Virus record (IMG/VR): IMGVR_UViG_3300035659_000011
Location: 1 to 62,793 of that record
DNA: 62,793 nt
Direction: 5' to 3' (one strand)
Source: a virus
Lineage: Duplodnaviria; Caudoviricetes
The notes beneath the pieces are model-generated. The model ran no database searches. It saw only the letters and a program-made list of their open reading frames with translations, and was not told the origin of the DNA. Positions 5,201 to 61,156 of the stretch are shown here, piece after piece; position 1 is the stretch's first letter; every line of letters starts with the position of its first letter. A program made the position numbers and the translations under genes.

Positions 5201-6157
5201 TCATCGCTTGAAGAAAGAACGGAGCTTTTTAAGTTTAATGCGGTCGAACTTAATTTTCTTATGCCGTAAACGATTGTTTGACTTTGTTATACTCAGTTTT
5301 CTAAGCTTTATCGGCTTCTTATGACTAACTGTCTTAATAGGCACTGTGCTTACTTGTCGATCTCGTTCATCATTATCACTATTGCCATTAAATTGTGCGT
5401 AGTTGTCAACCTGCGTCATGACCTTCATTCTTGTCTGTGAACTATACAATGACTTTTGCTTCGTCAAGTTGTCAAACACTAAATAGTACTTTGCTGCTCT
5501 CTCATCTACTTTCACTTTTCGTTTCAATTTCTTTAGACCTTGCTTCAATCTAGCTGACACTGCAGATTGTGATATGCCCAATTCTTTAGATACAATCCTC
5601 TGATTGTGCTTTAAGAAATATAACATCATCGCTTCTAATTGACGCTTAGACATGTGTTGTGCCAAGCAATTCCTCATGTCATTCACGTCAATCTTGCGAT
5701 TATTGTAGAAATGTAATATCCTATGTATAGCTCTCTTCTTATAATAATTCACCATTTCTTGTGACAAGCCCAATATCACACCAATATCTTCTTGTATCTT
5801 ATTATAGTCAAATATCAATGTCATTATGTCACGTTCAAAGTCTGGTAACAGATTATGAATGATGAATCTAATCTCAGCTAATCTCTCTTCTTCATCATCA
5901 TCATAATGACTTAATGACCTGGACGTTGCATTTTCATCAGCAGAAAAAAATGTAGATAACACATTATTATCAATTGCGATTTCTTTACGAAAACCAACTG
6001 CTCTAAATGTAGACTTGATATAATTATTGCGATTTTTTGTAGTAGTAATATCTATTTTTGCATCATTGAACGCATCAAATATAGTATCTGATGCTGTTTG
6101 CTTATCTTTATCAGTCATCAAATCTTTAGGTAATTCAGAAAAGAATGATTTATTCAT
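5201..6157 (-). CDS. sigma-70 region 4-like protein with tandem HTHs (putative phage sigma factor/transcription factor)
   Basis: LPDFERDIMTL..QEDIGVILGLSQEMVNYYKKRAI and QRIVSKELGISQSAVSARLKQGLKKL HTH motifs. Confidence 0.7.
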   Translation of the reverse strand: MNKSFFSELPKDLMTDKDKQTASDTIFDAFNDAKIDITTTKNRNNYIKSTFRAVGFRKEIAIDNNVLSTFFSADENATSRSLSHYDDDEEERLAEIRFIIHNLLPDFERDIMTLIFDYNKIQEDIGVILGLSQEMVNYYKKRAIHRILHFYNNRKIDVNDMRNCLAQHMSKRQLEAMMLYFLKHNQRIVSKELGISQSAVSARLKQGLKKLKRKVKVDERAAKYYLVFDNLTKQKSLYSSQTRMKVMTQVDNYAQFNGNSDNDERDRQVSTVPIKTVSHKKPIKLRKLSITKSNNRLRHKKIKFDRIKLKKLRSFFKR

Positions 6158-31775: not shown

Positions 31776-34700
31776 TCATACTTCTTTTGCCATCTCGTCG
31801 TACTTTGCAAGTTTTTGTTCTTGTTCTAATGTCTTCTCATATACATTGCCAATACAACAAATGTCAAGCAAATCTATGAAGATACGACCCATATACTCAC
31901 TAGTTTCTGCATCACCAACTAAAATATTGTTCATCTTAATAACTTCTTCAACTGGTACTTTCTGATATTTACCAGTCACATGATTCCAAACAAAAGCAGT
32001 CTTGCATCTACGATTATAACATGGTATCCGAATTTTGACAATATTGAATTTTGAATCAGTCAAAACTGTGTAGTAATAACTGTTATTATTCTTGCTAGTT
32101 TTTTGTACAATACTAGTAATTATACCCCAAACAGTTCGTTTCATATTTGCTTTTGGCTGTACTAACTTTGTCAACGTTTTAGCATTTAATCTACCAACTT
32201 CTTCTTTATGTAGATCAGATAATTTTGTTCGCCAATCTAAACTATATGATTCTACAAATTGTTCATGTTCATATTTACGGTCATCATAGTCAACATCGCG
32301 TTCCCATTTACTATCTCCCCTTAAGTCTTTATAGTATTTCTGTAATATCTCATTCTGCGTGCCAAAACAATCAAATACATGTGCGTTTATCAAAGCTAAC
32401 ATTGCCGATTTACCGACTTTCTTTATTTGTGAAGTCTTATCCCAAAAATCACCAAATGATGTAAATGGTTGCGTTCTCTTAATCACATCAATAATTGCTG
32501 GTCCGACACCCATAATATGACCCAAACCAAATATGATACTATTACTCTCACTATCTATAGTAAATCCCTCTTTTGACTTATTGATATCAGCCGGAACAAT
32601 ACTAATATTCTTTCCCATAATCTCAGAGAAATAATCAGTGAACTTCTCTTTCGGCGAATTTGTTAGCAACACTACATAAAACTCTAATGGATAATAAATC
32701 TTAAACCACATCATTTGATAACTGAGAATAGTATACGCTACAGCGTGGCTCTTATTGAATCCGTAGCGCGCAAATGACACGCAGCTTTGCCACCATGACT
32801 CAGCAACATCAGCCTTAAGGCCTCGCTCAACGCAGCCATTGATGAATTTATCATGTATTTCTTTTCGTTGTTTAGCCTCTTTATCTTTTGCATCTTTATC
32901 TCTAATAGACTTCATCAAATTCTTACGAACAGTATCAGTCAAGTCCAATGGAAATCCTGCTACTATATTACACAACCTCATAACATCTTCTTGATATACC
33001 AATATACCAAAACTATCTTTCAAACATCTTTCAATCAACGGTGATCCAAAATCGAATGACTTACCATTCTTGCGAGCAGCATATTCATGATGCATGCCCA
33101 TATCTAATGGTCCTGGCCGACCCAATGCAGTTGCACTAGTAATGTCATTGAATGTTGTTGGTCTAATCTCTTTCAACAACGACTTCATTAAATTACTATT
33201 GTGTACTACAAACCCATTTGCAACATAGTTGTGATGTTGTCTATCTGTAAACCCAATATCGTATACTAACTTTTCACCAATAAAATCAATACGCGTTATC
33301 GGTACAAACACATAACGTTTTTTGAAAAATCTAAACTGGCTTAACACCTGAGGCATGCAAGTTCGTTTACCTTCACAAATGCATTTCTTACAATCAGCTC
33401 CAACACCCTTTGACTCAATAGTCTTATCATAGACATTACAGTAATATTGAGTTCTACATCTTTGTTGATCAATAAGTACTTTGTCACCGACTTTCAATTC
33501 AGATAATTTCTTGAAACCTTGGAGCGTATAATATTCGTGAGTCATTGTTGATTCAAGGCACTTATTATCATGATCAACAGTGACTCTATAAACTTCTTTA
33601 AGCTGTTCTTTCATTGCATAAATTGTTTGTCGAACTTTCTTCTTACGTTTAAGATCAACACAACCAATTTTGCGAACCCTCTTACTTGAAACATAAATGT
33701 CTTTGTCTCTAAAGTCTCTATATAGTTCTCTTATTCTGTAATTGCCAATCCATGAATCACCAGCAATACATTCAAACTGGAAAATACCATTTGTATCTGT
33801 ATGTCTAAATCTATCATATATGACTTCATTACCATCTAATGGTAATTTACTTGAAAACTCTTCATACAATAATGATGTTATTTGACCACGATCAATTGAC
33901 TCAAGACTGAAATCAGCTTCTTTACTATACAGTTTTCGTAATCGAATCAAATCCAATATCTCTTTTATGATTGTTAGAGTCTTTAGTCCTAAAATATCAA
34001 ATTTGATGAAGCCTGAAGATTGTAAGTCTTTTCTAGTAATACCATCAACCCAACTTGTTATGAGATCACCTTTATGTCTCATTAAAGGTATTGTCTCATC
34101 AATTTTTGTAGGAGTTGCGACAACTCCTGCAGGATGTTTTGTGAGGTGTCGTAATTGACCTTTGAGTTTGAATAGTACTTCACGAACTTGAGGATATCGT
34201 TCAAGATATTTTCTTATTTCATACAAGTCATTTCTGAAACCGTCTTCACCAGGTTCTTTTGCAATGGCAATATCAAATTCTTCTTCAGTCATCGCATCTA
34301 CATCATCACCAAGATTTTTAACAACTTCATTAGTGTCATTCAAATCAACATCAAAAATTCGAGCTATATCTCTCATGACCATTTTCATTTTCATTTGGCC
34401 ATAAGAACCAATAGCTGCTACGTGGTCACTACCGTATTTGTTAATGAAGTATTTGACGACGTCTTCACGTTCATTTATACTGAAATCAGAGTCAATGTCT
34501 GGAAATGAAGATTGCTTTTTGATTTTGATAGCTATATTGTTTTTGATAGGATCAGAGTCTGAGATACCAAGTAAGAAGTAGACTAATGAGCCATGCTTTT
34601 CTATTTTAGTTTTGTTTTTGATTAGGTCAACAACATAGTCTTGAATGTTTTGTACATCAATGTTGGTCAATTCACGTTCAAGTTGTTGTATGTATTGAGT

Positions 34701-34808
34701 ATTGTCTAATGACAATTCTTTCAGTTTTCGTTCACAAAGGTATTGGACATAATCTAGTTTTGTAATCATGATATTTTCTATACTTATTGGTGCTACTGAA
34801 TTACTCAA
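31776..34808 (-). CDS. dnaE: DNA polymerase III alpha, C-terminal part (palm/fingers/HhH/OB) with mini-intein
   Basis: FPDIDSDF, KHPAGVV, IKFDILGL, GIFQFE, ALGRPGP, LVYQED, YGFNKSHAVAY. Confidence 0.93.
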   Translation of the reverse strand: MSNSVAPISIENIMITKLDYVQYLCERKLKELSLDNTQYIQQLERELTNIDVQNIQDYVVDLIKNKTKIEKHGSLVYFLLGISDSDPIKNNIAIKIKKQSSFPDIDSDFSINEREDVVKYFINKYGSDHVAAIGSYGQMKMKMVMRDIARIFDVDLNDTNEVVKNLGDDVDAMTEEEFDIAIAKEPGEDGFRNDLYEIRKYLERYPQVREVLFKLKGQLRHLTKHPAGVVATPTKIDETIPLMRHKGDLITSWVDGITRKDLQSSGFIKFDILGLKTLTIIKEILDLIRLRKLYSKEADFSLESIDRGQITSLLYEEFSSKLPLDGNEVIYDRFRHTDTNGIFQFECIAGDSWIGNYRIRELYRDFRDKDIYVSSKRVRKIGCVDLKRKKKVRQTIYAMKEQLKEVYRVTVDHDNKCLESTMTHEYYTLQGFKKLSELKVGDKVLIDQQRCRTQYYCNVYDKTIESKGVGADCKKCICEGKRTCMPQVLSQFRFFKKRYVFVPITRIDFIGEKLVYDIGFTDRQHHNYVANGFVVHNSNLMKSLLKEIRPTTFNDITSATALGRPGPLDMGMHHEYAARKNGKSFDFGSPLIERCLKDSFGILVYQEDVMRLCNIVAGFPLDLTDTVRKNLMKSIRDKDAKDKEAKQRKEIHDKFINGCVERGLKADVAESWWQSCVSFARYGFNKSHAVAYTILSYQMMWFKIYYPLEFYVVLLTNSPKEKFTDYFSEIMGKNISIVPADINKSKEGFTIDSESNSIIFGLGHIMGVGPAIIDVIKRTQPFTSFGDFWDKTSQIKKVGKSAMLALINAHVFDCFGTQNEILQKYYKDLRGDSKWERDVDYDDRKYEHEQFVESYSLDWRTKLSDLHKEEVGRLNAKTLTKLVQPKANMKRTVWGIITSIVQKTSKNNNSYYYTVLTDSKFNIVKIRIPCYNRRCKTAFVWNHVTGKYQKVPVEEVIKMNNILVGDAETSEYMGRIFIDLLDICCIGNVYEKTLEQEQKLAKYDEMAKEV
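33198..33770 (-). mobile_element. mini-intein (191 aa, no endonuclease)
   Basis: FQFE|CIAGDS..., ESTMTHEY (block B), ends VYDIG..HNYVANGFVVHN|S. Confidence 0.9.
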
Positions 34809-35127
34809 ACATTATTACTTTGAATTTTCGAGAAGATAGTTTACTGAAATCAAGATCAAAATCACTTTGATCCAGAATGAATGTGTGTTTGTTTACAAAA
34901 GTATCTCCATTAATATCAAACGCATTAAGCTGTCGAATTACATAATCAACTGCAAATTGCATTTCAAGAAACTTAACTAAATCAACGTAATTATTACATA
35001 CTGTTGCTCTTAAGCAGAATAATCGAATGATATATTGAAACCAAAAATTAGACTCTTTAAGTCCAGTGATTTGTATAAAATCAGATATTGTTACATCTTT
35101 ATTGACTATCAAAATGATTTTTTTCAT
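34801..35127 (-). CDS. hypothetical protein between the dnaE halves
   Basis: 108 aa ORF. Confidence 0.55.
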   Translation of the reverse strand: MKKIILIVNKDVTISDFIQITGLKESNFWFQYIIRLFCLRATVCNNYVDLVKFLEMQFAVDYVIRQLNAFDINGDTFVNKHTFILDQSDFDLDFSKLSSRKFKVIMFE

Positions 35128-35141
35128 TCTTCAGTCCAACT

Positions 35142-35678
35142 CTAGATTCTGCTTGGTGGATCAAGAGACACTGGTTCATACCCAGAAGAAGCTGTGCTAC
35201 GACTATAACCTGAAACACCCATAATTCCTGTACTACCTGCATAACCTGAAAATCCTGTAATTCCCGTGCTACCTCGCAAACCTGCAATTCTCGTGCCAGT
35301 CACACCTTGTAAACCCGTACTACCTTGTAAACCCGTGCAGCCTCGCAAACCTGTGTAGCTTGTGTAGCCCGTGAGACCTGCACCAAATAACCCTGTCGTG
35401 CCAGCTCCATAAGTTTGTGAATGTATCAAATTTACAGCGTCTAAATACGCATTACGACTACTATCTAATAGAATTTGTGATTTAGGTTTATATTTGATAA
35501 TGCCTGGAGATTGAACTCGTTTTTCATCTTTATGATAACCATTATGAGATTTGAGATAACCATTTGCAGATTTCTTGTATTTACCAACAATATTTGTAAT
35601 GTATTTTCTAATAGATGAAATAGCAAACATGCGATTACATGTAGTTGTATCACAAGGCGGGTTAGGATTAATAGCCAT
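35142..35678 (-). CDS. protein with collagen-like Gly-X-Y (GxTG) repeats
   Basis: TGLRGCTGLQGSTGLQGVTG...GSTGITGFSGYAGSTGIMGVSG; GGAG RBS. Confidence 0.7.
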   Translation of the reverse strand: MAINPNPPCDTTTCNRMFAISSIRKYITNIVGKYKKSANGYLKSHNGYHKDEKRVQSPGIIKYKPKSQILLDSSRNAYLDAVNLIHSQTYGAGTTGLFGAGLTGYTSYTGLRGCTGLQGSTGLQGVTGTRIAGLRGSTGITGFSGYAGSTGIMGVSGYSRSTASSGYEPVSLDPPSRI

Positions 35679-35686
35679 ATTGACTC

Positions 35687-37534
35687 CTATTCATTAAGCT
35701 TGATGAGTCTATTCTTTGACCATTCATCAAAATCTTCGTCCATAAACAACTCAGCTTTATCTTCAATCTCTTTGAATGTCGGTACTGACATATCATATAT
35801 AGCCATACTTCGTGACATACTCAAAAATCTCTCGAACAACAAATTAAACTTCAATGGATCGATATTTGTAATATCTAGAAGATAACAGACGAGAGACCCA
35901 GCAGCTGATCCGCGAGCACTCCCTACGACAACGTTATTATTTTTTGCATACTTAATGTAATCTGCTACAATTACAAAATAATCGGCCATCTCCGTCCTTC
36001 TTATAACGCTCAATTCTGTTTTAACTCGCTTTACATGCTCACTATTTTCTTCATACCAACTGTCTTCTGCTTTTCTAGTCCAACCTTCGCGAACCATTGA
36101 TACCATATAGTCATAACTACTAGCGAAACCTTCAGTCTGTATCTTTGGTAACTTCTCTTTCGTATCCCATTCCCATACTTCAACTTTATTTGCTAACTTA
36201 ATTGTATTGTCAAGAGCTCTTGTAAAAGTCTCAACATTAACGTATTCATAATGACCTTGGTCAATATATGTATCTATCATCTGGTGACGATCTTTGAACC
36301 AAAAACCCTTAGTAGAAAACTCCCAAACTTTCTTGAATTTCTTCTTACCAGTAACAATATCAAATATCTCTTCAAATGTAATCCCTAATTCTTTATTTGT
36401 TGCAGGACTAAATTCAGCAAATCTGTCAAGCTCAATAAAATTGTTATAAACAGATCGAACGTGAGCTTGAGTTATATCTTCACCAATCTCAACTAATATC
36501 TCTGAAATCACATTCATCCTCTTCTTATCTTTCATCGTAACTTGATCGCCACCATCATCTTTTGACCCGAGCATTAATGATATCTCTTGAGCTTTAGCAC
36601 CACTCTCATCTAAATAATGAACGTCATTTGTTACAATCACTTCTATACTCAACTCTTCAGCAATTTCTAGTAATAATTTATTCACAACTCTTTGTTTGTC
36701 AATCTCAATCATCATAATTTCAATATAGAAATCTTCACCAAAAATGTCTTTATACATTTTGGCAGCTAACAATCCTGCTACTTTTGCATCTTTCTCATTA
36801 TCGTGTTTCAACATTTCATTGTTAATGATTCCTGCAAGACATGCAGATGTAACAATGATGCCTTCTTTATTTTCAGACAAAAATTGCAATGACGTTCGAG
36901 GTTTGTAATAGAAACCATTTCTAGCAGCATCACTAACAATTTTAGTAATGTGTTTACGACCAGTTTCATTCTTTGCTAACAATACAATGTGCTGATTTCG
37001 CTTTAATGCATCTCGACTGTCTGACAATTCTTTGTCTTGAGCTTGTAATTTTTTAAGATGCTTGTCAAGTTTTTGTTTAACTTCAGAATAATCTAATACA
37101 GTAATATCTTCAAACTCTGCAGTTGGCATCTCTAGTATTTGCCTGAAGAAATCAACATTTGCTACAAACAACACTTTATTTGCTTTTTTATGCTTGATTG
37201 AATTCTTTAATACTTTAACTTTTTCATCTATCTTATCGAGTGCCGTATTGAAAGCTTCAACTTCTTCTCGTTTATTTTGCAGATACATTTCTACACCAAC
37301 AATTGGCTTCAAATTCACAGATCTACAATACATAAAGAATGAAGGATGAGCACCAATACTTCCATGATCTGTGATTGCTAATGCAGGCATACCAAGCTCA
37401 ACTGCTCGTTTAGCATATTGGTTTGGTTTGCCGATACCGTCTTTGAGCGAAAAGTCACTATGTAAGTGTAGGTGAATGAAATCTTTTTTCTCACCAGTTT
37501 TATATAATGCTTGTCTAATTTCTTCTTTGTCCAT
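35687..37534 (-). CDS. dnaE: DNA polymerase III alpha, N-terminal part (PHP domain to the RGS/FERF motifs)
   Basis: HLHLHSDFSLKDG, ITDHG, HIVLLAKN, SACLAG, TNDVHY, RGSAAGSLVCYLLDIT.IDP, FERFL. Confidence 0.93.
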   Translation of the reverse strand: MDKEEIRQALYKTGEKKDFIHLHLHSDFSLKDGIGKPNQYAKRAVELGMPALAITDHGSIGAHPSFFMYCRSVNLKPIVGVEMYLQNKREEVEAFNTALDKIDEKVKVLKNSIKHKKANKVLFVANVDFFRQILEMPTAEFEDITVLDYSEVKQKLDKHLKKLQAQDKELSDSRDALKRNQHIVLLAKNETGRKHITKIVSDAARNGFYYKPRTSLQFLSENKEGIIVTSACLAGIINNEMLKHDNEKDAKVAGLLAAKMYKDIFGEDFYIEIMMIEIDKQRVVNKLLLEIAEELSIEVIVTNDVHYLDESGAKAQEISLMLGSKDDGGDQVTMKDKKRMNVISEILVEIGEDITQAHVRSVYNNFIELDRFAEFSPATNKELGITFEEIFDIVTGKKKFKKVWEFSTKGFWFKDRHQMIDTYIDQGHYEYVNVETFTRALDNTIKLANKVEVWEWDTKEKLPKIQTEGFASSYDYMVSMVREGWTRKAEDSWYEENSEHVKRVKTELSVIRRTEMADYFVIVADYIKYAKNNNVVVGSARGSAAGSLVCYLLDITNIDPLKFNLLFERFLSMSRSMAIYDMSVPTFKEIEDKAELFMDEDFDEWSKNRLIKLNE

Positions 37535-37832: not shown

Positions 37833-38904
37833 CTGCTTGCTTTGCTAGTTTTCTATCGATACTTCTTTTCATGAAGATATAGAATGGATGATCTTTACCG
37901 ATTTTTTCGTTATGATCATTTGCTTCATCTAATCTATCTTCTTTTAGTGATTTATAGCAAGCAAATACTAGTAACCATTTTTTCCAATATTCTGGAACTG
38001 TATGTATTAAACTACAATCATTGTCATGTCGAATCATTTCTTCTAATGCACCAATGACTTTTATGTATTGTAGCGAATTTAGTGGCATGGGTGGCACTTC
38101 CAATATCTCTCCAACTTTTCGGTGCCTATTATTTAGTATCCTTTGTGCCCATTCATAGTCTCTTTTGTAAATGTGTAATGAACCATCAACATGATAATAC
38201 CAACCAGGTTCAATACCAAGCTCTGAAGCTATGAGTTCCTGTATTGTAGAGAAGTTGTGAGCATCTGTGCTAAGTCCCAGACAGACATCGTTACTTCTCA
38301 TTGATGCTATCATTTCAAGCTTTTTGCATTTTGCAACTTCTCTAATGAAGAACTGGAATGTCATTGTGCACGGTACGTCTTTTGTGCTTATGTAATCTTT
38401 TCCAGCATAGAATATATTGCAAACTGCTTGACGACTATCAGGATCTTCTTTGAGTTTATTGATTACTTGTTGAAATTGATCGACAGTGTTATAACCGGTA
38501 GTAAGTAATCTTCGAAGTCTTGGGCCGTATGCTCCATGAAAATCAATACCGTTATCAGAGAATTGTTTTAGTTTTGAGTTATAGAATGTTATCATTTCTA
38601 CATCATCTTTGCCATTCATAATCCATAAACATTCCGCAAGCATAAATGCCAAATTGACTTTTCGTTCTGGATTGAATATTAGTCGTTTTCTTGAATTTTC
38701 AAAACCGATCATGTATGATATTAGTTCTTTTGTCTCCATACCTCTTGGAAATGTAGTACGACCTAATGTCATTAATGATTCAATCGCATCAGTGTAGCAG
38801 TGTTCAAAGGCAGTTGCTATTGAACAATGAAAGTCCATCTTGCACTCCTCAGAAAATTGGTGATTGTATGAATAATTTGAAGATTCAGAATTTGTCTTTT
38901 TCAT
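37819..38904 (-). CDS. thymidylate synthase homologue, probably dCMP hydroxymethylase
   Basis: GAYGPR, DSRQAV, KDVPCT, MRSNDVCLGLSTD (Asp at the ThyA Asn specificity position), SLHIY. Confidence 0.8.
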   Translation of the reverse strand: MKKTNSESSNYSYNHQFSEECKMDFHCSIATAFEHCYTDAIESLMTLGRTTFPRGMETKELISYMIGFENSRKRLIFNPERKVNLAFMLAECLWIMNGKDDVEMITFYNSKLKQFSDNGIDFHGAYGPRLRRLLTTGYNTVDQFQQVINKLKEDPDSRQAVCNIFYAGKDYISTKDVPCTMTFQFFIREVAKCKKLEMIASMRSNDVCLGLSTDAHNFSTIQELIASELGIEPGWYYHVDGSLHIYKRDYEWAQRILNNRHRKVGEILEVPPMPLNSLQYIKVIGALEEMIRHDNDCSLIHTVPEYWKKWLLVFACYKSLKEDRLDEANDHNEKIGKDHPFYIFMKRSIDRKLAKQAGEHE

Positions 38905-51210: not shown

Positions 51211-51450
51211 CACATAATCTACAATTTTCATTGTAGTGTGGACTATCTCTTTATCCATTGGTTATGGATAACGGGCGCTAATAGAGGTTTATTGATTGAG
51301 TTTCTCACCTCTTAGTCTCTGCACCTTCTGACTTACAACTGTCCTCTTCGGTCAGCTTGGCTCAGGGTTATCATGTCATTTCTGATTTAGAGTTCCCTGA
51401 ATTCACCCGTTTTTCATTAGTCATTACTGACCAATGCGACCATTTTGTTA
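51211..51450 (-). mobile_element. group I intron (240 nt, no ORF) in the tmRNA T-loop
   Basis: P AATTCAGGGAA, Q AACCCTGAGC, R GTGCAGAGACTAA, S AAGAGATAGTCC; 5' exon ends in U, intron ends in G; removal restores a 7-nt T-loop. Confidence 0.88.
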
Positions 51451-51669
51451 ATCGAACCCTCGTCCAGAATGCAATCCGTAACAGCTACTACATGTTTATC
51501 TGGTTCTACAAAGCGCTCTCATTCAATACTCAGAACCAGCAAGTTTCATAGATGAGAGCCGTAGATGTAATTTCGGTCACCTTCTCTACTACGATTCGGT
51601 TACCCTATCCACATATGAATTGTCAGACTCTAACTGCTGTGGCTCCATCAGAATCTTAGTTGCTTTTAA

Positions 51670-51756
51670 TTAAGCAACAGCTGCAACCGGCATCGCCATT
51701 TCGCACATTGCAGCGAACTGCATAGCGAAACGGATTCCGGCATTAACTGTTTTGGC
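51670..51756 (-). other. tmRNA proteolysis tag reading frame (A)AKTVNAGIRFAMQFAAMCEMAMPVAAVA*
   Basis: Starts at GCC after TAACT; Ala-rich hydrophobic C-terminus. Confidence 0.75.
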
Positions 51757-51938
51757 AGTTAAATTTCGACCGGTATTTTTAGGAGGCCAACGATCATCCT
51801 CCACATGCAACTGTGACTTCACACAATCTGTCGAAAACCAGGTCATCCCCATAATTTCAAAGAACATGAATATCAACCTTATCAATCAATTAATCAAGCC
51901 ATATATCGATGTAACTCATCATAAAGACCTCTTAATGT

Positions 51939-54124: not shown

Positions 54125-55354
54125 TCAACCCACTAAGATTTCAGTCTTAGTCGGTAATCCCATCTTATCCAACAAATTGATAAAAGGCACAGGGTCTAAC
54201 TCTTCTACGTTTACCATAGTCTTAGAATCCCAGATGCCATTTGCTACTAATATTGCAGCAGCTGCTACGGGCACTCCTGCAGTATAACTAATCGCCTGTG
54301 AATCAGTCTCCTTGTAACAGTCTTTATGATCGCACACATTGTAGATAAATATCTCTCTATAATTACCTAGTCGTTTACCCTTAACTAAACAACCAATACA
54401 AGTCTTACCAACATAATCGGGAGCCAATGTCTTTGGATCTGGTAAACATGCTTTCACTACTTTCAACGGTATAACATCTAATCCTTCAGCTGTCTTGACA
54501 GATTTCTCTGACAATAGTCCAATATTCTTTAACACATTGAAGCAATTGATATAATGGTCACCAAATCCCATCCAAAAACGTATACTATTAGCATCAATGT
54601 TTTGAGACAATGAATGCAATTCATCATGTCCTGATAAATAAATAGTCTGTTTACCAACTTCTGGAAAATCATACACTTTCTTTACTTCATGCATCTCATT
54701 AACTACCCACTTACGGTCAATCCATGACATGACTTTTCCAGTAAACTCCCTAAAATTAATCTCAGGATCGAAATTTGTAGCAAAATACTTACCATGACTT
54801 CCAACATTCACGTCCATAATATCTATTGTGTCAATTACATCAAAGTAATTTCTAGCAGCTAATGCGCAATATGCATTAACAACTCCCGGATCAAACCCAA
54901 TACCCAAAATAGCAGTAATTCCAGCTTGTTTGCAAGCTTCTCTCTTTTTCCATTCGTAATTTCCATACCACGGCGGTGGCTCACACACTGTAGCCACTCT
55001 ATCAGGATGCTCATAAACAGCAGTGTCTATATACGCCACGCCAGCTTCAATGCAAGCATCTAAAACTGACATGTTTACAAACGGTGATGCCAAATTGAGT
55101 ACTATAGTAGATTCTGTCTCTTTTATCAACTCGATTACTGACTTAGTATCTAGAGCATCAACACTGGTTGATGATAGCAATTTCGAATTGTCTTTCATAC
55201 TATCATGACTAAAAACACTCTCAAGTATATCGTCACACTTGCTTCTAGTTCTAGATGCTATGCAAATGTTTCCCAAAACATCATTATTTTGCGCACACTT
55301 ATGTGCTGCAACTTGTGCCACCCCTCCTGCCCCGATGATTAGTGTGTTGTGCAT
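54125..55354 (-). CDS. carboxy(nor)spermidine dehydrogenase/synthase (saccharopine dehydrogenase family)
   Basis: IIGAGGVAQVAAHKCAQ, YIDTA, GFDPG, FATNFDPEINFRE, SQAISYTAGVP; adjacent to nspC. Confidence 0.92.
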   Translation of the reverse strand: MHNTLIIGAGGVAQVAAHKCAQNNDVLGNICIASRTRSKCDDILESVFSHDSMKDNSKLLSSTSVDALDTKSVIELIKETESTIVLNLASPFVNMSVLDACIEAGVAYIDTAVYEHPDRVATVCEPPPWYGNYEWKKREACKQAGITAILGIGFDPGVVNAYCALAARNYFDVIDTIDIMDVNVGSHGKYFATNFDPEINFREFTGKVMSWIDRKWVVNEMHEVKKVYDFPEVGKQTIYLSGHDELHSLSQNIDANSIRFWMGFGDHYINCFNVLKNIGLLSEKSVKTAEGLDVIPLKVVKACLPDPKTLAPDYVGKTCIGCLVKGKRLGNYREIFIYNVCDHKDCYKETDSQAISYTAGVPVAAAAILVANGIWDSKTMVNVEELDPVPFINLLDKMGLPTKTEILVG

Positions 55355-55362
55355 GCATACTC

Positions 55363-56466
55363 CTACGATAAATTGTATTTATAGTCTTCATATCCAAATT
55401 TGCGCACAGTATCAATAGATCCACCAATTCTCTTGACAACAATTGCGGGCATTTGCAAACCATTAAACCACGTCTTTTTAACCATGGAATAGCCAGCTGC
55501 ATCTAAAATACGCACTGTGTCACCGACCTTGAGAGGCGTTTCAATCTCGCAATGACCAAAAATATCTCCAGCTAAACATGACCGACCAGCAATCAAATAA
55601 TAGTTATGACCATTGTTTCTTCTATCAAATTCTGACTCAACATTGTAAATCAATCGATCTAACAAATGCGCCTCAACTGAAGCATCAACTATCGCAATAT
55701 CAATCTCATTATGCACAATATCGACAACTGTCGTAACTAACTCTGCAGCATGAGAAATAGCAGCTTCACCCGGTTCAATGTAAATTTGAATATCAAACTT
55801 ACTGCTAAATGACTTCAACTTATTACAAAACATATCAAACGGATACTTACTTTCAGTAAATAACACTCCTCCACCCAAACTTACCCATTTCAATTTCACT
55901 AAAACATCACGATACATGTTACCAATAAAGTCTAACATATTTGAAAAGTCATCAAAGTCTTCATTATCGCAATTAAAATGAAACATTGCACCGCTAATCA
56001 ATGGCAAAACACTTTCAACTTCTTTCTTATCAATAACACCAAGACGTGAAAATTTACGGCCAGGATCAGCTAAATCATAATCAGAATGACTAACGACAGG
56101 ATTTATTCGAAGACCAATTGGCAGGTCAGCCACTATAGAATGATATGCTTTTAACTGTGATACAGAATTGAAAATGATCTTACTAGCATATTGTCTAATG
56201 TCTTCTACATCTTGTTTTGAATAGCCTACGCAATAAGCATGTGTTTCTTTACCAAAAGTCTCATATCCTAATCGAGCTTCATACAAGGAAGAACTAGTAG
56301 TACCATCCATGTATTTTTTCATTAAGTCAAATACAGACCACATTGAAAAACATTTCAATGCAAGCAGAGATTTTGCACCAGAAATATCTCTTACACGCTT
56401 GATTTTTTCAAGATTGTGTAGTAGTTTACTTTCGTCAATAAAATAATACGGCGTGGGAATAACCAT
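55363..56466 (-). CDS. nspC: carboxy(nor)spermidine decarboxylase
   Basis: TPYY, LLALKCF, SSLYEARLG, SRLG, SLGGG, EPGEA, SCLAGDIFG, YSMVKKTWFNG. Confidence 0.93.
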   Translation of the reverse strand: MVIPTPYYFIDESKLLHNLEKIKRVRDISGAKSLLALKCFSMWSVFDLMKKYMDGTTSSSLYEARLGYETFGKETHAYCVGYSKQDVEDIRQYASKIIFNSVSQLKAYHSIVADLPIGLRINPVVSHSDYDLADPGRKFSRLGVIDKKEVESVLPLISGAMFHFNCDNEDFDDFSNMLDFIGNMYRDVLVKLKWVSLGGGVLFTESKYPFDMFCNKLKSFSSKFDIQIYIEPGEAAISHAAELVTTVVDIVHNEIDIAIVDASVEAHLLDRLIYNVESEFDRRNNGHNYYLIAGRSCLAGDIFGHCEIETPLKVGDTVRILDAAGYSMVKKTWFNGLQMPAIVVKRIGGSIDTVRKFGYEDYKYNLS

Positions 56467-56519: not shown

Positions 56520-56595
56520 TGGCGTGCCTGGAGAGATTCGGACTCCCACTATCGGTTTCGTAAACCGATCCCCTATCCAGTTAGGAAACAGGCAC
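56520..56595 (-). tRNA. tRNA-Arg(ACG)
   Basis: GTGCCTG/CAGGCAC acceptor stem, anticodon arm TCGGT-TTACGAA-ACCGA, encoded CCA; T-loop reads TCCGAAT (C at 55). Confidence 0.88.
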
Positions 56596-56602
56596 GCAAA
56601 AA

Positions 56603-56676
56603 TGTCCCTAGAGAGACTCGAACTCTCAATCTGCAGTTTAGGAAACTGCTGCGCTATCCAGTTGCACCATAGGGAC
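56603..56676 (-). tRNA. tRNA-Arg(CCT)
   Basis: GTCCCTA/TAGGGAC acceptor stem, anticodon arm GCAGT-TTCCTAA-ACTGC, TTCGAGT T-loop; no CCA. Confidence 0.9.
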
Positions 56677-56805
56677 AGATGTTCGTCTAAAAATATCTAA
56701 ATCTTTACAGTATCGTTCAACAAATCGTCTAAGTGATGTATGACTAATATTTAACAATTTTGATGCTTCGCTCACCCAACCAAATTTACTTGTATCTATA
56801 GTCAT
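56677..56805 (-). pseudogene. HTH-bearing fragment, probable remnant of an endonuclease gene within the tRNA array
   Basis: Translates TIDTSKFGWVSEASKLLNISHTSLRRFVERY and runs into tRNA-Arg(CCT). Confidence 0.4.
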
Positions 56806-56844
56806 CAATGCGCATCACTGCAGCTAAAATACATCATGAAAGCT

Positions 56845-56920
56845 TGGCTGGGGCCCGGAGATTTGAACTCCGAACTACATGCTCCAAAGGCATGGGCTCT
56901 ACCAATTGAGCTAGACCCCA
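56845..56920 (-). tRNA. tRNA-Gln(TTG)
   Basis: U1-A72 start TGGGGT, G73, CCA; anticodon arm CATGC-CTTTGGA-GCATG. Confidence 0.87.
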
Positions 56921-56927
56921 TCATAAT

Positions 56928-57002
56928 TGGTCGGGACAGCCGGATTTGAACCGACGACTACAACATCCCAAATGTTGTATGCTACCACTGCATTACGTCC
57001 CG
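56928..57002 (-). tRNA. tRNA-Pro(TGG)
   Basis: CGGGACG start, anticodon arm CAACA-TTTGGGA-TGTTG, A73, CCA. Confidence 0.92.
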
Positions 57003-57018
57003 TGCTTATTTCAACAAT

Positions 57019-57054
57019 AAAAAAGGCCTCACTTTATTCAAGTGAAGCCTTTTT
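57019..57054 (-). terminator. attenuator terminator (3:4 hairpin) in front of the tRNA operon
   Basis: AGGCTTCACTT-GAATA-AAGTGAGGCCT followed by a U-run, 16 nt upstream of tRNA-Pro. Confidence 0.85.
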
Positions 57055-57083
57055 AGAAGAGATTCTTCGACAGCTTCACTTGA
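57038..57083 (-). promoter_or_regulatory. antiterminator (2:3) helix
   Basis: TCAAGTGAAGC (57083-57073, spanning the leader stop codon) is the perfect 11-nt complement of GCTTCACTTGA (57048-57038, terminator 5' arm). Confidence 0.8.
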
Positions 57084-57138
57084 GCATACGTTGTCCTGGT
57101 TGGGGTTGACGCTGCGGTTGTGGCTGCCTGCGAATCAT
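57076..57138 (-). CDS. attenuator leader peptide MIRRQPQPQRQPQPGQRMLK
   Basis: 14 of codons 3-17 are Arg/Gln/Pro; in-frame alternative ATG at 57153; stop codon lies inside the antiterminator arm. Confidence 0.8.
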   Translation of the reverse strand: MIRRQPQPQRQPQPGQRMLK

Positions 57139-57178
57139 AATGTCTTCTCTCATGTTATTAAATGTCCGTATAAAGTAA

Positions 57179-57221
57179 TAATCAATTCTATTAGCGTAGA
57201 GTAATCAATCTATTAGCGTAG
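57179..57221. repeat. near-tandem ~21-bp direct repeat at the 3' end of tnpB
   Basis: TAATCAATTCTATTAGCGTAG (57179-57199) and TAATCAATCTATTAGCGTAG (57202-57221). Confidence 0.75.
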
Positions 57222-58464
57222 TGGTTAATTCATTACTAGACCACTTGTCATGATCTAGCAACATCCTTGAAAAGCTTACGCTCTCCAAATGGGCTAACCA
57301 CGAGCCCTTAATTGGTATGGCGCTGTCACCACAGTAACTCTTCATGATATTCACTGCCCCATTACCATCTCTTGTGAATATCAAAGAATCATTCAGCTTC
57401 ACTATGCGATCTGACAGCTTCAGCTCTGCGTCAAATCGCTCATTTGTCAAACAATTAGTACAGCTTGTATAAGCCTCATTCTGCCTGACAAATAATATAC
57501 CCTCGTCAAGTACTTTGTACTCAATGAAAGTTCTAAATCTACTCAGCGTGCCCTGATTCTGAGTTGATTTATTCAATCCCCTATCCTTCGCTAACTTTGA
57601 ATCTTTCACTAACTTCTTAGTCTTTATGTCACCATAAACAACTTTCGACACTTCATTTTCTATACAGTAATCTACAATCTTCTTACTGACTTTATGCTGA
57701 AAGTCTTTATTCTTATTTGCTAGTTTTTTCTTGCAACGTTTATAAATAGCTGCTAGTCTTTTATATCGTCTAGAGTATTTCTTTTTCTTGTCACGAAGTG
57801 ACTGTATGACTTCTATTCTTTTTTCAAGCTGCTTGTGAAATTGATCGTTTGGTATTTCTATAATCTCTTTCTTATCTGGGTTGTAGATTGTAGCTATGTT
57901 AGTAACGCCAGGATCTATAGAAATTAGTTTCTCTTGAGTGAACGTTTTGACTTTTTTGGGTTCACTATAAGTGAAGATAGCGAAGTACACATCATCTTCT
58001 TTTTTTATTTGCAAAGTTTTAAGAGTACCTACAATTGTTTTACAGTAATCTGGTAATTGAATTTCTAATACTTTTGCTGTTTCAATGTAGTGATTTTCAA
58101 TAAAAATAGTTAAAATATTGTCATTTAGTTTGAAATTGCAATTACGCCATTGAATAGTTGTAAAGTACTTCCACGATTTGAATCTATATGGGAGTCTAGC
58201 TGCTTTGTCTGTTTTCTTTTTAGCAAGATAGCTTTTCACACTATTGATTAGTGTTTTACAAGTTTCATAAGCCGGTCTATATTGTATAGTTAAATTGTTC
58301 TCTCGCCTAAACTTGCTACATTCCTTACTGAACCCTACAATTGTACCAGTGTTTTTCGCATGTTCAAGTAAATGATTATACAATAGTCTATGTTCATTAG
58401 ATAGTGTATTCAACACTAACTTCTGATACCACGACAAATTAAGTTTAACTTTTAACGCTTTCAT
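57205..58464 (-). CDS. tnpB: TnpB-family RNA-guided endonuclease with rearranged RuvC-II
   Basis: MKALKVKL N-terminus, RLLYNHLL, ISIDPGV, VVYGDI, QNEAYTS, RDGNGAVNI. Confidence 0.87.
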   Translation of the reverse strand: MKALKVKLNLSWYQKLVLNTLSNEHRLLYNHLLEHAKNTGTIVGFSKECSKFRRENNLTIQYRPAYETCKTLINSVKSYLAKKKTDKAARLPYRFKSWKYFTTIQWRNCNFKLNDNILTIFIENHYIETAKVLEIQLPDYCKTIVGTLKTLQIKKEDDVYFAIFTYSEPKKVKTFTQEKLISIDPGVTNIATIYNPDKKEIIEIPNDQFHKQLEKRIEVIQSLRDKKKKYSRRYKRLAAIYKRCKKKLANKNKDFQHKVSKKIVDYCIENEVSKVVYGDIKTKKLVKDSKLAKDRGLNKSTQNQGTLSRFRTFIEYKVLDEGILFVRQNEAYTSCTNCLTNERFDAELKLSDRIVKLNDSLIFTRDGNGAVNIMKSYCGDSAIPIKGSWLAHLESVSFSRMLLDHDKWSSNELTTTLID

Positions 58465-58476
58465 AGTAATTATTGT

Positions 58477-59265
58477 TTACTTAATATCATGTAGCTTTTC
58501 CACTTTATTAAACAAAATCCTGAACTTATCATCTATGTCCATATCTTCGTGGAAATGACCACAATAGTAATGATCGAACAACATCTTGTCGCAGATTTCT
58601 TCTAACATCTTTGCAGTCGGATCAGAAAGTCGTTGAATCAATGATGTTGATACTTCATCAACATAACCACTTCTTGGAGTACTTAACATGCCGTGCGGAG
58701 CAGTATTATAATCGCCAAATTGATCAATTCCAAATATTGTCAATAATTTCGCAATCTTATTTCTTGGTAACGTATGGGCTACTACATAATCTACACTACT
58801 ATGTGCACTAATTGTGTGTAATGCTAATTCAAACTCTTCATCTGATGGTATTTCTTGTTTCCACCATGATTCATTTTCAATTCGTCTATTTTTGTCTGTG
58901 GTCATCGCACCGCCGAAACAAAAGAATTTTTTGTTTTCAATAATATATATGTAGCCAGTTTTCAAATGGAATATACTATCATTAACAATGCCGACGGGCC
59001 CACCGAACTTTTCAATGACGTCCAGTTTAGCTAGTCTATTGTAATTGTCATGATTGCCACTGATGAATAATGTAGTGAATGGTTTTTCAATTAACCAATT
59101 TGTCCAGTAAATTTCAGTTTTGTCAGGTTCATCTTCCCATAATAGGCCGAAATCACCACAAATTATGACTACATCATTTTTAGTGAGAGTTTTTACGGGG
59201 AACGAATCAGTAGCTAGTTTGCTGATATCGTGAGGTATGTGAGTGTCACCGGTAATGAATATCAT
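58477..59265 (-). CDS. calcineurin-like metallophosphoesterase
   Basis: TGDTH, CGDFG, GNHDN, AHT, CGHFH. Confidence 0.9.
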   Translation of the reverse strand: MIFITGDTHIPHDISKLATDSFPVKTLTKNDVVIICGDFGLLWEDEPDKTEIYWTNWLIEKPFTTLFISGNHDNYNRLAKLDVIEKFGGPVGIVNDSIFHLKTGYIYIIENKKFFCFGGAMTTDKNRRIENESWWKQEIPSDEEFELALHTISAHSSVDYVVAHTLPRNKIAKLLTIFGIDQFGDYNTAPHGMLSTPRSGYVDEVSTSLIQRLSDPTAKMLEEICDKMLFDHYYCGHFHEDMDIDDKFRILFNKVEKLHDIK

Positions 59266-59970: not shown

Positions 59971-60583
59971 TATTCATCCTATTTGGAGTCCAATTTGTTT
60001 TCCAGTGATCATCGGTCTTCACATGAGATTTTCTAACCCATTTTGCCATATTAATGCTCATTTTATCAATTAGAAATTCATCTGTGCTCCTTACAACATA
60101 GCCTTCAATTTCGTTGCCAAATGCTGACGTTGTTGGCACTTTAAACGCAGGATCAAATGGTCCTCTCTGCAAAATCGGTACATATTGCAGTCCAAATTCG
60201 TTACAAATTTTGATAGTGTCATCTACTGATAAGAAAACATTTCTCTCTAAGTCGATTACTGCAAACACATAGAAAAACGTAGACAACTTATCATAGAAAA
60301 TGCTATGCTTAGCAAAGACATTTTCTCCCACAATTTGAATGTATTCCGGTATTTTCCACGCTATTTGAGCATGAAGTGCTTTAATCCATGACTGAGATGG
60401 ATGATGCGTAGATTCTTCACTTCTTGCATGACATCTGTCTGATTTCAACGATGTACATTCTCCGTCGAGTTTCTCTGTATAAATTACGCCCTTGCCTATC
60501 AAACACTGATCATTCTCAAGTATCTCGTCGTCATCTGAGATACCCTCAGAATTAGGAAGGTGTCTAGTCCTTGGGTACTTAAT
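59957..60583 (-). CDS. ATP-dependent RNA ligase (Rnl2-like family); start probably ATT at 60583
   Basis: KYPRTRHLP.SEG..DDD, TEKLDGE, VGEN, FYVFAV, EGYVVR, KWVR. Confidence 0.85.
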   Translation of the reverse strand: MKYPRTRHLPNSEGISDDDEILENDQCLIGKGVIYTEKLDGECTSLKSDRCHARSEESTHHPSQSWIKALHAQIAWKIPEYIQIVGENVFAKHSIFYDKLSTFFYVFAVIDLERNVFLSVDDTIKICNEFGLQYVPILQRGPFDPAFKVPTTSAFGNEIEGYVVRSTDEFLIDKMSINMAKWVRKSHVKTDDHWKTNWTPNRMNNGTH

Positions 60584-60588
60584 AGAGT

Positions 60589-60828
60589 CTACCTCAATCT
60601 CAATATTCTACAGATCTTTGACCACAAACTTATCGATCTTAATTGCGTAGAATCTTCAGCATCTCTACGCCATTTCCTTATGACATACCAGTAATCTTTA
60701 CATCGTCTACGAAAATTCTTATAAGGACCGAAGTACAATTTCTTACCATTCATTTCAACGATAAGAAAGTTATCTTTCGCATATATATAATCAGCAGAAT
60801 TCAGATCGATATTTCGAATTCTACTCAA
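60589..60828 (-). CDS. hypothetical protein
   Basis: 79 aa ORF. Confidence 0.5.
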   Translation of the reverse strand: MSRIRNIDLNSADYIYAKDNFLIVEMNGKKLYFGPYKNFRRRCKDYWYVIRKWRRDAEDSTQLRSISLWSKICRILRLR

Positions 60829-61156
60829 TTTCTTTTATCTCGATATTCAAATGTTTCATCAACCATTCTGCTACTAAATGTCTATGACAAAACTTTCCAG
60901 ACTTTTCCCAACACAAAATTACAGCATCTTCACCAAGCTCTTCAAACACTTGCTTCGGATCCAACTCATCTAACACTTCTTTTTGATACTGCAATTTATA
61001 GAACTCTTCATCACCATCTAGTTTGTACTTCTTGAAAAACCAATACTTGGGTGCTAACTTTTTGTACTGACGACCTGTGAACCAATCAGGAGCTTTTGCA
61101 GCAATCGATACAGCTTGTGGATGTTTTGAAGATTTTGCATAGTATGAAGTCTGCAT
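60821..61156 (-). CDS. DUF488-family protein
   Basis: TSYYA, LAP, LCWE...FCHRHLVAEW. Confidence 0.82.
   Translation of the reverse strand: MQTSYYAKSSKHPQAVSIAAKAPDWFTGRQYKKLAPKYWFFKKYKLDGDEEFYKLQYQKEVLDELDPKQVFEELGEDAVILCWEKSGKFCHRHLVAEWLMKHLNIEIKEIE

Follow-up and report, generated by a model that had tools for sequence, protein, structure and literature searches.

The DNA analysed here (the window) is a 62,793-nt fragment of an uncultured virus, IMG/VR record IMGVR_UViG_3300035659_000011, and is estimated to be 31 % complete. On its minus strand, four tRNA genes are preceded by a short open reading frame (ORF) and an intrinsic terminator, and this unit is probably a ribosome-mediated (leader-peptide) transcription attenuator that gates the phage tRNA operon. 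The features expected of such attenuators are present, namely a short ORF on the same strand as the tRNA genes, enrichment of particular codons in it, a Rho-independent terminator, an antiterminator that excludes the terminator, and a leader stop codon located in segment 2, the 5′ strand of the antiterminator. This mechanism had been proposed in a first-pass annotation made from the letters of the DNA alone, and at the sequence level it was supported in every test made. The DNA used for comparison was L053 (a 67-kb Joint Genome Institute metagenome contig), G001 (a 113-kb viral contig) and the genome of Cellulophaga phage phi38:1 (NC_021796). The unit in the window is referred to as U1 and the units found in G001 as U2, U3 and U4. 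The parts of U1 are as follows.

57174–57199, minus strand: bipartite motif lying 36 nt upstream of the leader ATG, with boxes of 7 and then 12 nt on either side of an 8-nt spacer.
57200–57221, minus strand: partial extra copy of the motif (22 nt, three substitutions), directly after the right end of a TnpB element.
57076–57138, minus strand: leader ORF of 20 codons plus TGA (ATG at 57138, TGA at 57076), MIRRQPQPQRQPQPGQRMLK.
57120–57128, minus strand: predicted segment 1, within codons 4–7, which pairs with segment 2 in the minimum-energy folds of untranslated RNA.
57073–57083, minus strand: segment 2, the antiterminator 5′ strand lying across the leader stop codon, TCAAGTGAAGC, the exact 11-nt complement of 57048–57038.
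57056–57068, minus strand: spacer hairpin of 5 bp inside the antiterminator loop, identical in L053.
57020–57054, minus strand: intrinsic terminator of 15 pairs followed by a T run (segment 3, 57048–57038; segment 4, 57034–57025; −20.1 kcal/mol).
56928–57002, minus strand: tRNA-Pro(UGG), starting 17 nt after the end of the terminator stem.
56845–56920, minus strand: tRNA-Gln(UUG).
56602–56677, minus strand: tRNA-Arg(CCU).
56520–56595, minus strand: tRNA-Arg(ACG).

Fourteen of the 15 codons from 3 to 17 of the leader specify Arg (CGC, AGG, CGT and CGT), Gln (CAA or CAG) or Pro (CCA, CCG or CCC), exactly the codons listed in the first-pass annotation, and the four tRNA genes carry the anticodons it had assigned to them. 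The 20-codon ORF it described also stands. However, the 25-codon form starting at the ATG at 57153, which its coordinates took in, does not, as that upstream ATG is lost in L053. Codons were scored as readable using conservative wobble rules (U34 reads A/G, G34 reads C/U, C34 reads G and A34 reads U/C/A). By these rules, the tRNAs of the cluster read 13 of the 19 internal leader codons, against a background of 7.7 % in long ORFs (binomial P=6×10⁻¹¹). When all 15-codon stretches in the six frames of the window were scored for codons readable by the tRNAs of the block, the leader was the maximum of 125,492 stretches with 13/15, and the best score elsewhere was 9/15. In long ORFs, 10.9 % of all codons specify Arg, Gln or Pro. 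None of the four leader Arg codons is AGA or CGA, which account for 70 % of the Arg codons of the phage, while AGG, CGC and CCC are little used by the phage (6, 5 and 7 %, respectively, of the codons in their families) and may be rare in the host as well.

The perfect complementarity of the 11-mer over the stop codon (57083–57073) to the 5′ arm of the terminator (57048–57038), as claimed beforehand, was confirmed. Dinucleotide shuffles of the upstream 130 nt served as the control, with 500 used for complement length and 300 for duplex energy. A complement of 11 nt was reached in none of 500 shuffles, and the duplex between segment 2 and the terminator arm (−18.2 kcal/mol) was equalled in none of 300. 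Exact-complement length is underpowered for imperfect antiterminators such as those of U2 (6 nt, 104/500 shuffles as good) and U3 (7 nt, 38/500), and duplex energies were therefore used in its place. At the nine other sites in the window with a hairpin and T run (free energy of −11 kcal/mol or lower), 32–294 of 300 shuffles were as good, and 16 of the 17 non-unit hairpins tested fell at 14–294/300.

These figures bear on the possibility that an ordinary operon-end terminator happens to follow a chance short ORF, the tRNAs being supplied by leaky read-through or a weak overlapping promoter. Phage genomes are rich in short ORFs and terminators, C-rich simple sequence in one frame yields Gln, Pro and Arg, and there is a candidate promoter, TTGAAT-17-TATTGT, which has 8 of 12 matches by eye and is kept in L053. 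However, that promoter is below the scan threshold, the leader is first among 125,492 stretches, and the antiterminator is matched by 0/300 shuffles and lacking at the nine other terminators of the window. In addition, the frame and length of the ORF are conserved, the switch region is invariant, and the design recurs with other codon sets (see below). We consider a chance arrangement quite unlikely. Between the terminator and tRNA-Pro, no sigma-70-like site was found at the threshold of the scan tool.

The folding of the leader RNA was modelled with the ribosome as a 30-nt mask and, except where stated, with the RNA ended at segment 4, which is the part outside the polymerase while the U tract is being synthesized. 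In isolation, the 2:3 hairpin (−21.2 kcal/mol) and the 3:4 terminator with its A/U extension (−20.1 kcal/mol) are of similar strength. The free RNA is predicted to fold as 1:2 plus the terminator. Masked and unmasked folds, which the first-pass annotation had suggested as a check, agreed with its scheme in that a covered stop region gave the terminator and stalls at codons 2–4 or 8 gave the antiterminator as the minimum-energy fold (positions refer to the ribosomal A site). With the A site on codons 5–10, the two states are near isoenergetic (−1.9 to 0 kcal/mol), and the antiterminator would be favoured kinetically because it is completed first. From codon 11 on, the ribosome has uncovered segment 1 and the preference shifts to the terminator, and on codons 17–21 the terminator is favoured by 8–14 kcal/mol because segment 2 is covered by the ribosome. 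The sensing codons encode R R Q P Q P Q R, and Arg is thus represented by both isoacceptor classes, Gln by both of its codons and Pro by two. The model accordingly has the regulatory codons placed over segment 1 and segment 2 masked from the stop codon. The 1:2 pairing is predicted in both haplotypes available (two sequences only), with different segment 1 letters in L053.

In the scheme that we favour, transcription probably starts near the motif at 57199–57174 and runs into the 20-codon leader. If the Arg, Gln and Pro codons are read smoothly, the ribosome would arrive at the TGA and cover segment 2, the 3:4 terminator would form and few tRNA transcripts would be made. If decoding is slow, the ribosome would stall over segment 1 (codons 3–10), leaving segment 2 free to pair with segment 3 once that has been made. 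This 2:3 pairing would block the terminator, and RNA polymerase would read on into tRNA-Pro, tRNA-Gln, tRNA-Arg(CCU) and tRNA-Arg(ACG). Where the leader is not translated, 1:2 and 3:4 would form and transcription would stop. Translation of the leader, stalling on it and the promoter are inferred here from the sequence. The predicted Shine-Dalgarno pairing of the U1 leader is −2.9 kcal/mol, against a median of −3.4 kcal/mol for 45 long ORFs, and that of the L053 leader is −5.4 kcal/mol. Across the leaders of all units, the values range from −2.9 to −5.6 kcal/mol, like those of the long ORFs of the phage.

As the products of the operon are the tRNAs that read the leader, the arrangement would exert negative feedback on decoding capacity for these codons, and feedback on the supply of these decoders would be its simplest purpose. 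Induction after cleavage of tRNAs by host defences, the purpose suggested in the first-pass annotation, is compatible with the scheme, and an anti-defence role is conjecture. Starvation for amino acids would open the switch too, with no evident advantage.

The tails of several of the terminators share letters. Six T's and then ATTG follow as the T run and its continuation in U1 (57024–57015), U2 (G001 78057–78069), U4 (G001 104531–104541) and at the first phi38:1 leader (about 35415), and the same ATTG tail is found at one terminator in the window that is not associated with tRNAs (25288–25268). This may be chance or part of the terminator design.

L053 carries a second haplotype of the unit. 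Its leader, MIRRLQQPQRRPQPGQRMLK, has 20 codons in the same frame and differs from that of U1 by seven substitutions, all in codons 3–12. Two of the changes are synonymous (CGC to CGT and CCC to CCT), the others are Pro to Gln, Gln to Arg and Gln to Leu, and every changed codon still starts with C. Between the motif and the ATG, identity falls to 70 % and there are indels. The region that starts at codon 13 and takes in segment 2, the small hairpin, the terminator and the spacer has no substitutions in 98 aligned nt, the sole difference being a 2-nt deletion in the spacer. Identity in the neighbouring genes is 84.8 % (Metallophos) and 87.3 % (nspC-like), and at this background divergence of 13–15 % an invariant switch region would be very unlikely without selection.

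Conservation of the length and frame of the ORF, together with the identity of codons 13–20 in L053, would also be expected of a functional micropeptide rich in Arg, Gln and Pro, with its position before the tRNA genes incidental. That explanation is highly improbable, since three of the five changed codons are non-conservative (Pro to Gln, Gln to Arg and Gln to Leu) yet all begin with C, the identical part coincides with the RNA pairing segments and extends beyond the stop codon, and the ORFs of the other units resemble this one in architecture only, with no similarity between the peptides.

The tRNA genes behind the switch have not been conserved in the same way. L053 retains only the first 28 nt of the tRNA-Pro of the window. 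This stub is followed by a different tRNA with a UGG anticodon, an endonuclease-like ORF of 386 codons, tRNA-Gln (62.8 % identical to that of the window), tRNA-Arg(CCU) (80.5 %) and tRNA-Arg(GCG), which replaces the ACG tRNA (61 %). Arg is encoded five times in the L053 leader (CGT, AGG, CGT, CGC and CGT), each time by a codon readable by the CCU or GCG tRNA. On this comparison, the switch and the amino-acid set Pro/Gln/Arg/Arg persist while the tRNA genes turn over. In the window, an ORF of 56 codons between tRNA-Gln and tRNA-Arg(CCU) (56638–56808) is a remnant, sharing 93 % identity over 127 nt with the endonuclease-like gene of L053 (L053 6177–7335), which is intact and contains two helix-turn-helix repeats. 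The presence of a remnant in one and an intact copy in the other indicates that the tRNA cluster is being remodelled by a mobile gene. Within the part of L053 that holds the stub and its replacement (5976–6112), the new UGG tRNA is 82 nt in length, its variable arm is long and position 33 is C, which makes it odd for proline.

The order of genes on the minus strand around U1 begins with two that lie upstream of the motif.

59265–58477, minus strand: Metallophos (calcineurin-like phosphoesterase) gene.
58464–57205, minus strand: TnpB gene, with OrfB_IS605 and Cas12f1-like TNB domains.

A structured RNA is found at the 3′ end of TnpB-type genes and, with a TnpB gene directly upstream, the region might be taken for an omega RNA or the right end of an IS200/IS605 element. 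We practically discount this. The TnpB element has a homologue in G001 (83 % identical), and the homology (window 58465–57225) ends at 57225, short of the leader by 87 nt. In contigs from three of the four other sediment metagenome runs compared, 57186 and 58493 are adjacent, with no element between them, and in L053, also an empty site, the stop codon of the Metallophos gene is followed by the leader within 57 nt. As the homology ends at 57225 and the relatives without TnpB keep the leader and switch, these are native phage DNA and the TnpB element is a later insertion.

The element itself (57222–58492, minus strand) is inserted precisely at the first U1 motif box and replaces the last codons of the Metallophos gene. 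The truncated motif copy at 57221–57200 occupies the place where the guide sequence of the element is expected, and L053 has a single motif copy. When the TnpB protein was aligned to a solved TnpB-like nuclease, the position of the RuvC-II glutamate was glycine (VVYGDI), and the protein may be inactive as a nuclease or may use a relocated glutamate.

G001 belongs to the same lineage, with 83–89 % identity to the window and L053 in the overlapping parts. Its last 2.8 kb is 88.8 % identical to L053 990–3803 and 86 % identical to window 60287–61156, and it ends approximately 3 kb before the expected place of the Pro/Gln/Arg unit. There are 32 tRNA genes in its last 37 kb, and three more units were found, in each of which the motif precedes a short ORF with an antiterminator at its stop codon, and a terminator and tRNA block follow.

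G001 77918–78001: U2 leader, MRITTSTFNNNTYSCCFNSNSKLVEFV; terminator at 78027–78062.
G001 91550–91681: U3 leader, 43 codons; terminator at 91710–91744, with a block of 15 tRNAs starting 205 nt on.
G001 104371–104478: U4 leader, 35 codons; terminator at 104505–104536, with tRNA-Met 14 nt later.

The U2 leader is a Phe/Asn/Ser/Cys/Thr leader that precedes exactly the corresponding tRNAs, its block being made up of tRNA-Phe(GAA), Asn(GUU), Ser(GCU), Cys(GCA) and Thr(CGU), together with one tRNA that has a CUA anticodon. The four Ser codons in this leader are all AGY. In the U4 block, tRNA-Met is followed by Thr(UGU), Ile, two odd tRNAs, Ala and Arg(UCU). The antiterminator strand overlaps the leader stop codon or is no more than 9 nt from it in all four units, and for the duplexes of U2, U3 and U4, 3, 2 and 0 of 300 shuffles, respectively, were as good. 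The extent to which each leader is read by the tRNAs of its own block is as follows.

U1: 13/19 codons read; background 7.7 %; P=6×10⁻¹¹.
U2: 16/26 codons read; background 14.4 %; P=4×10⁻⁸.
U3: 26/42 codons read; background 49 %; P=0.066.
U4: 9/34 codons read; background 15.7 %; P=0.074.

Matches between leaders and the blocks of other units are low (0/19 for U1 against block 2, for example), and the true assignment of leaders to blocks ranks first of 24 permutations. On this test, which the first-pass annotation had named beforehand, the leaders at homologous loci thus track the tRNA content, most clearly in U2 (16/26). A six-frame scan of G001 (225,848 stretches of 15 codons) gave the U2 leader as the maximum for block-2 codons, with 14/15 against 11 for the next best. 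The best stretch of the U3 leader scored 13/15 (top 6×10⁻⁴) and that of U4 7/15 (top 5×10⁻³). For the Pro/Gln/Arg set, no stretch of G001 exceeded 9/15, as expected of a contig that does not include the Pro/Gln/Arg unit. Taken together as a composite of the window and G001, the four blocks include tRNAs for all 20 amino acids (PQR, CFNST, DEGHKLMSVWY and AIMRT).

The bipartite motif precedes all four leaders by 36–75 nt (window 57199; G001 77816, 91467 and 104320) and is also found at L053 5775, with one substitution and a 7-nt spacer. As the consensus was written from the unit sites, the fit of these sites is by construction. Within two substitutions of it, no other site was found on either strand of the window, G001 and L053 (176 kb). 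Among 2.9 million viral contigs, from which records very near to the window were omitted, there were two exact matches, neither associated with tRNAs or leaders, and both were judged to be chance. The shared motif is presumably the promoter or operator of a tRNA regulon. A sigma-70 promoter was considered and rejected, as no consistent −35/−10 arrangement could be seen by eye.

Further features of the G001 blocks were recorded. The tRNA with a CUA anticodon in block 2 (G001 81989–82062; L051 5990–6063) would read amber codons and, as the U2 and U4 leaders both end in TAG, it could shift the position at which ribosomes stop on them. According to ARAGORN, two tRNAs (G001 110035–110184; L052 14036–14185) have four-letter anticodons. 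Between the U2 terminator and tRNA-Phe (G001 78063–78144; L051 2064–2145) there is a second short ORF with a second copy of the terminator tail, which looks like a partial tandem duplication of the switch.

The same design was found in phi38:1. In this phage, three short ORFs (35283–35360, 36744–36833 and 37987–38076), each located 3′ of a repeated promoter-like element, are each followed by a terminator with an upstream complement and then by a tRNA block. The leaders match their own blocks as follows.

Leader a, MKTIMNIATDIRTKGVK...: block of Lys, Ile, Gly, Met, Asp, Thr, Val and Arg(UCU); 15/24 codons read; P=6×10⁻³.
Leader b, MKTNMTYNNFSWYSNCSFSSYN...: block of Ser, Ser, Asn and Phe; 11/28 codons read; P=8×10⁻⁴.
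Leader c, MNVTLLHQEPLEQLRLP...: block of Pro, Glu, Gln, His, Leu and Arg(ACG); 11/28 codons read; P=7×10⁻³.

None of the six comparisons of a leader with another leader's block was significant (P≥0.77). The phi38:1 units thus resemble U1 in having a promoter-like repeat, a short ORF that lists its block and a terminator with a complement, and one of the blocks reads codons that begin with C. However, phi38:1 is an unrelated, cultured podovirus of 72 kb with a host in the Bacteroidota, its promoter-like element is a different one, and the leaders share no sequence similarity with U1.

The shared motif lends itself to a different explanation, namely factor-dependent antitermination, in which it would be both a promoter and the site where a phage antitermination factor loads, as lambda Q does at PR′-tR′. 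The terminators would be read through once that factor is made, and the ORFs would have little or no role. A strong terminator is found 100–230 nt downstream of each motif, an arrangement resembling that of Q-type late operons, and the motif is shared by all four units and absent elsewhere in 176 kb (both strands). That the terminator always wins at equilibrium (see below) would also fit. However, no stretch in the genome scores higher than the ORFs before blocks 1 and 2 for the codons of their own blocks, the antiterminator strand is at the ORF stop codon in four of four units, and the same codon matching is found in phi38:1 behind another promoter-like element. We regard factor-dependent antitermination as unlikely, and note that it could coexist with an attenuator.

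Several observations weigh against leader-peptide attenuation. The Shine-Dalgarno match of the U1 leader is weak, and 28 % of random positions equal it. No convincing sigma-70-type promoter for the leader was found, and transcription from the nearest listed site (57161–57134) would start inside the ORF. Thirteen of the 15 core leader codons begin with C, and the Arg, Gln and Pro signal is therefore in part a single compositional feature rather than a set of independent events. The codon matches of U3 and U4 are weak over the whole leader. One of the 17 control hairpins, L053 3760–3810, which belongs to no unit, scored 2/300, like the units. In the fold model, only stalls at codons 2–10 favour or permit the antiterminator and, once the U tract is added, equilibrium folding yields the terminator at all 20 ribosome positions. 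The switch must therefore be kinetic (co-transcriptional), as in classical attenuators. The identical stretch of approximately 100 nt in the two haplotypes could also stem from recent recombination and, as their stems are without substitutions, these two sequences offer no compensatory changes. Finally, the first tRNA of L053 is disrupted, and the 1.2-kb endonuclease-like gene separates the switch from most of its tRNAs.

The window has a GC content of 34.9 %, and 45 of its 47 ORFs of at least 150 aa are on the minus strand. The replication module includes a DnaE-like polymerase in two ORFs, a UvsX-like recombinase, a ribonucleotide reductase, an SbcC-like protein and a helicase. The polymerase ORFs (615 and 1010 codons; window 31776–37534, minus strand) are separated by approximately 880 nt and match complementary parts of one PHROG family. 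No close cultured relative was found in the phage GenBank collection, where all polymerase matches are below 30 % identity and the sole further match is a tRNA-level one of 131 nt in a Providencia phage. A search of IMG/VR with the nspC-like protein revealed no relatives, and one with the Metallophos protein returned 38 loci of at most 48 % identity, with tRNAs in 1 (L039) of the 13 scanned. There were no matches in IMG/VR to the terminator pattern or to a 29-nt tRNA-Pro pattern. Of the 17 sequencing runs identified as containing this DNA, none was listed as RNA.

Elsewhere in the window, a phage tmRNA (86.7 bits in Rfam) abuts a group I intron (103.7 bits) or overlaps it by 12 nt (51219–51842, minus strand). 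These are preceded by a strong hairpin with a T run (51991–51945) that lacks an antiterminator (294/300 shuffles as good). On the 3′ side of the last tRNA, nspC-like decarboxylase and saccharopine-dehydrogenase-like genes, resembling those of the carboxynorspermidine pathway, are present (54125–56466, minus strand). As there is no terminator between, an open switch may also lead to their transcription together with the tRNAs.

Phages have been proposed to carry tRNA genes for codon-usage compensation, for late-infection supply or for escape from tRNA-cleaving defences. By a small degree, we lean towards a more general reading, in which phages of unrelated lineages use codon-matched leader-peptide attenuators, an undescribed class, to tune each tRNA operon to the speed at which its own codons are read. 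In the lineage of the window, one of sediment phages, the four units with a dedicated promoter or operator motif and tRNAs for all 20 amino acids would then form a modular homeostat of decoding capacity, one that would also be switched on after loss of host tRNAs, for example to anticodon nucleases. If so, phages would gauge decoding speed codon by codon and top up only the tRNAs that are scarce. For this, phi38:1 is a cultured system with the same design. With the window unit, the design extends to a lineage distant from the Bacteroidota phages, and natural variants that have or lack TnpB can be compared. There is also an exchange of tRNAs under an unchanged switch, and the motif common to all four units points to a regulon.

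Codon-matched attenuation of phage tRNA genes is probably unpublished. Full-text searches, which could miss a paper in a subscription journal, returned no description of leader-peptide attenuation of tRNA genes, and as far as the searches show the phi38:1 leader units have not been described. In the phi38:1 transcriptome paper (PMC5335546), the statements on tRNAs, attenuation and terminators concern host tRNA genes. Rfam at gathering scores identified only tRNAs, the tmRNA and the group I intron in the window, and no known leader family. With E values of up to 10, matches in 56950–57450 were all insignificant, namely Thr_leader at 17.7 bits (E=0.85; gathering score 55) and, on the other strand, 18.6 bits, and L10_leader at 19.5 bits.

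Among known systems, the T-box riboswitches of Gram-positive bacteria resemble the window unit in that a terminator/antiterminator switch in a leader reports tRNA status. They bind uncharged tRNA directly, without translation, using a specifier loop and the conserved T-box sequence. The unit is not a T-box, as there was no Rfam T-box match in the window at the gathering score or in 56950–57450 at E values of up to 10. The attenuator of the Escherichia coli pheST operon, with the pheM leader, controls phenylalanyl-tRNA synthetase. Like the window unit, it is a case of leader-peptide attenuation of a translation component and answers to the supply of charged tRNA. However, its target is a synthetase and not tRNAs, a single amino acid is involved and the genes are cellular.

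The leader-peptide attenuators of enterobacterial amino-acid operons include trpL, hisL and leuL and the multivalent leaders of thr (Thr and Ile codons) and ilvGMEDA (Ile, Leu and Val codons). The closest likeness to the window unit that we note is with the thr/ilv type, in the regulatory ORF covering several amino acids, the 1:2, 2:3 and 3:4 segments, the Rho-independent terminator, and a stop codon positioned such that a terminating ribosome masks segment 2 while a stalled ribosome favours the antiterminator. A further leader attenuator, pheL, is treated in PMC3082878. In sequence, the window unit is unrelated to these leaders, given the insignificant Thr_leader match above. The window unit differs from the thr/ilv-type leaders in that its targets are tRNA genes rather than biosynthetic enzymes, such that the feedback would act directly on decoding, in that its leader matches anticodons (AGG and CGY, with no AGA or CGA), and in being carried by a phage. 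If the attenuator is as proposed, a textbook mechanism gains a new class of target and a new logic, in which the product of the operon is the ligand of its own sensor.

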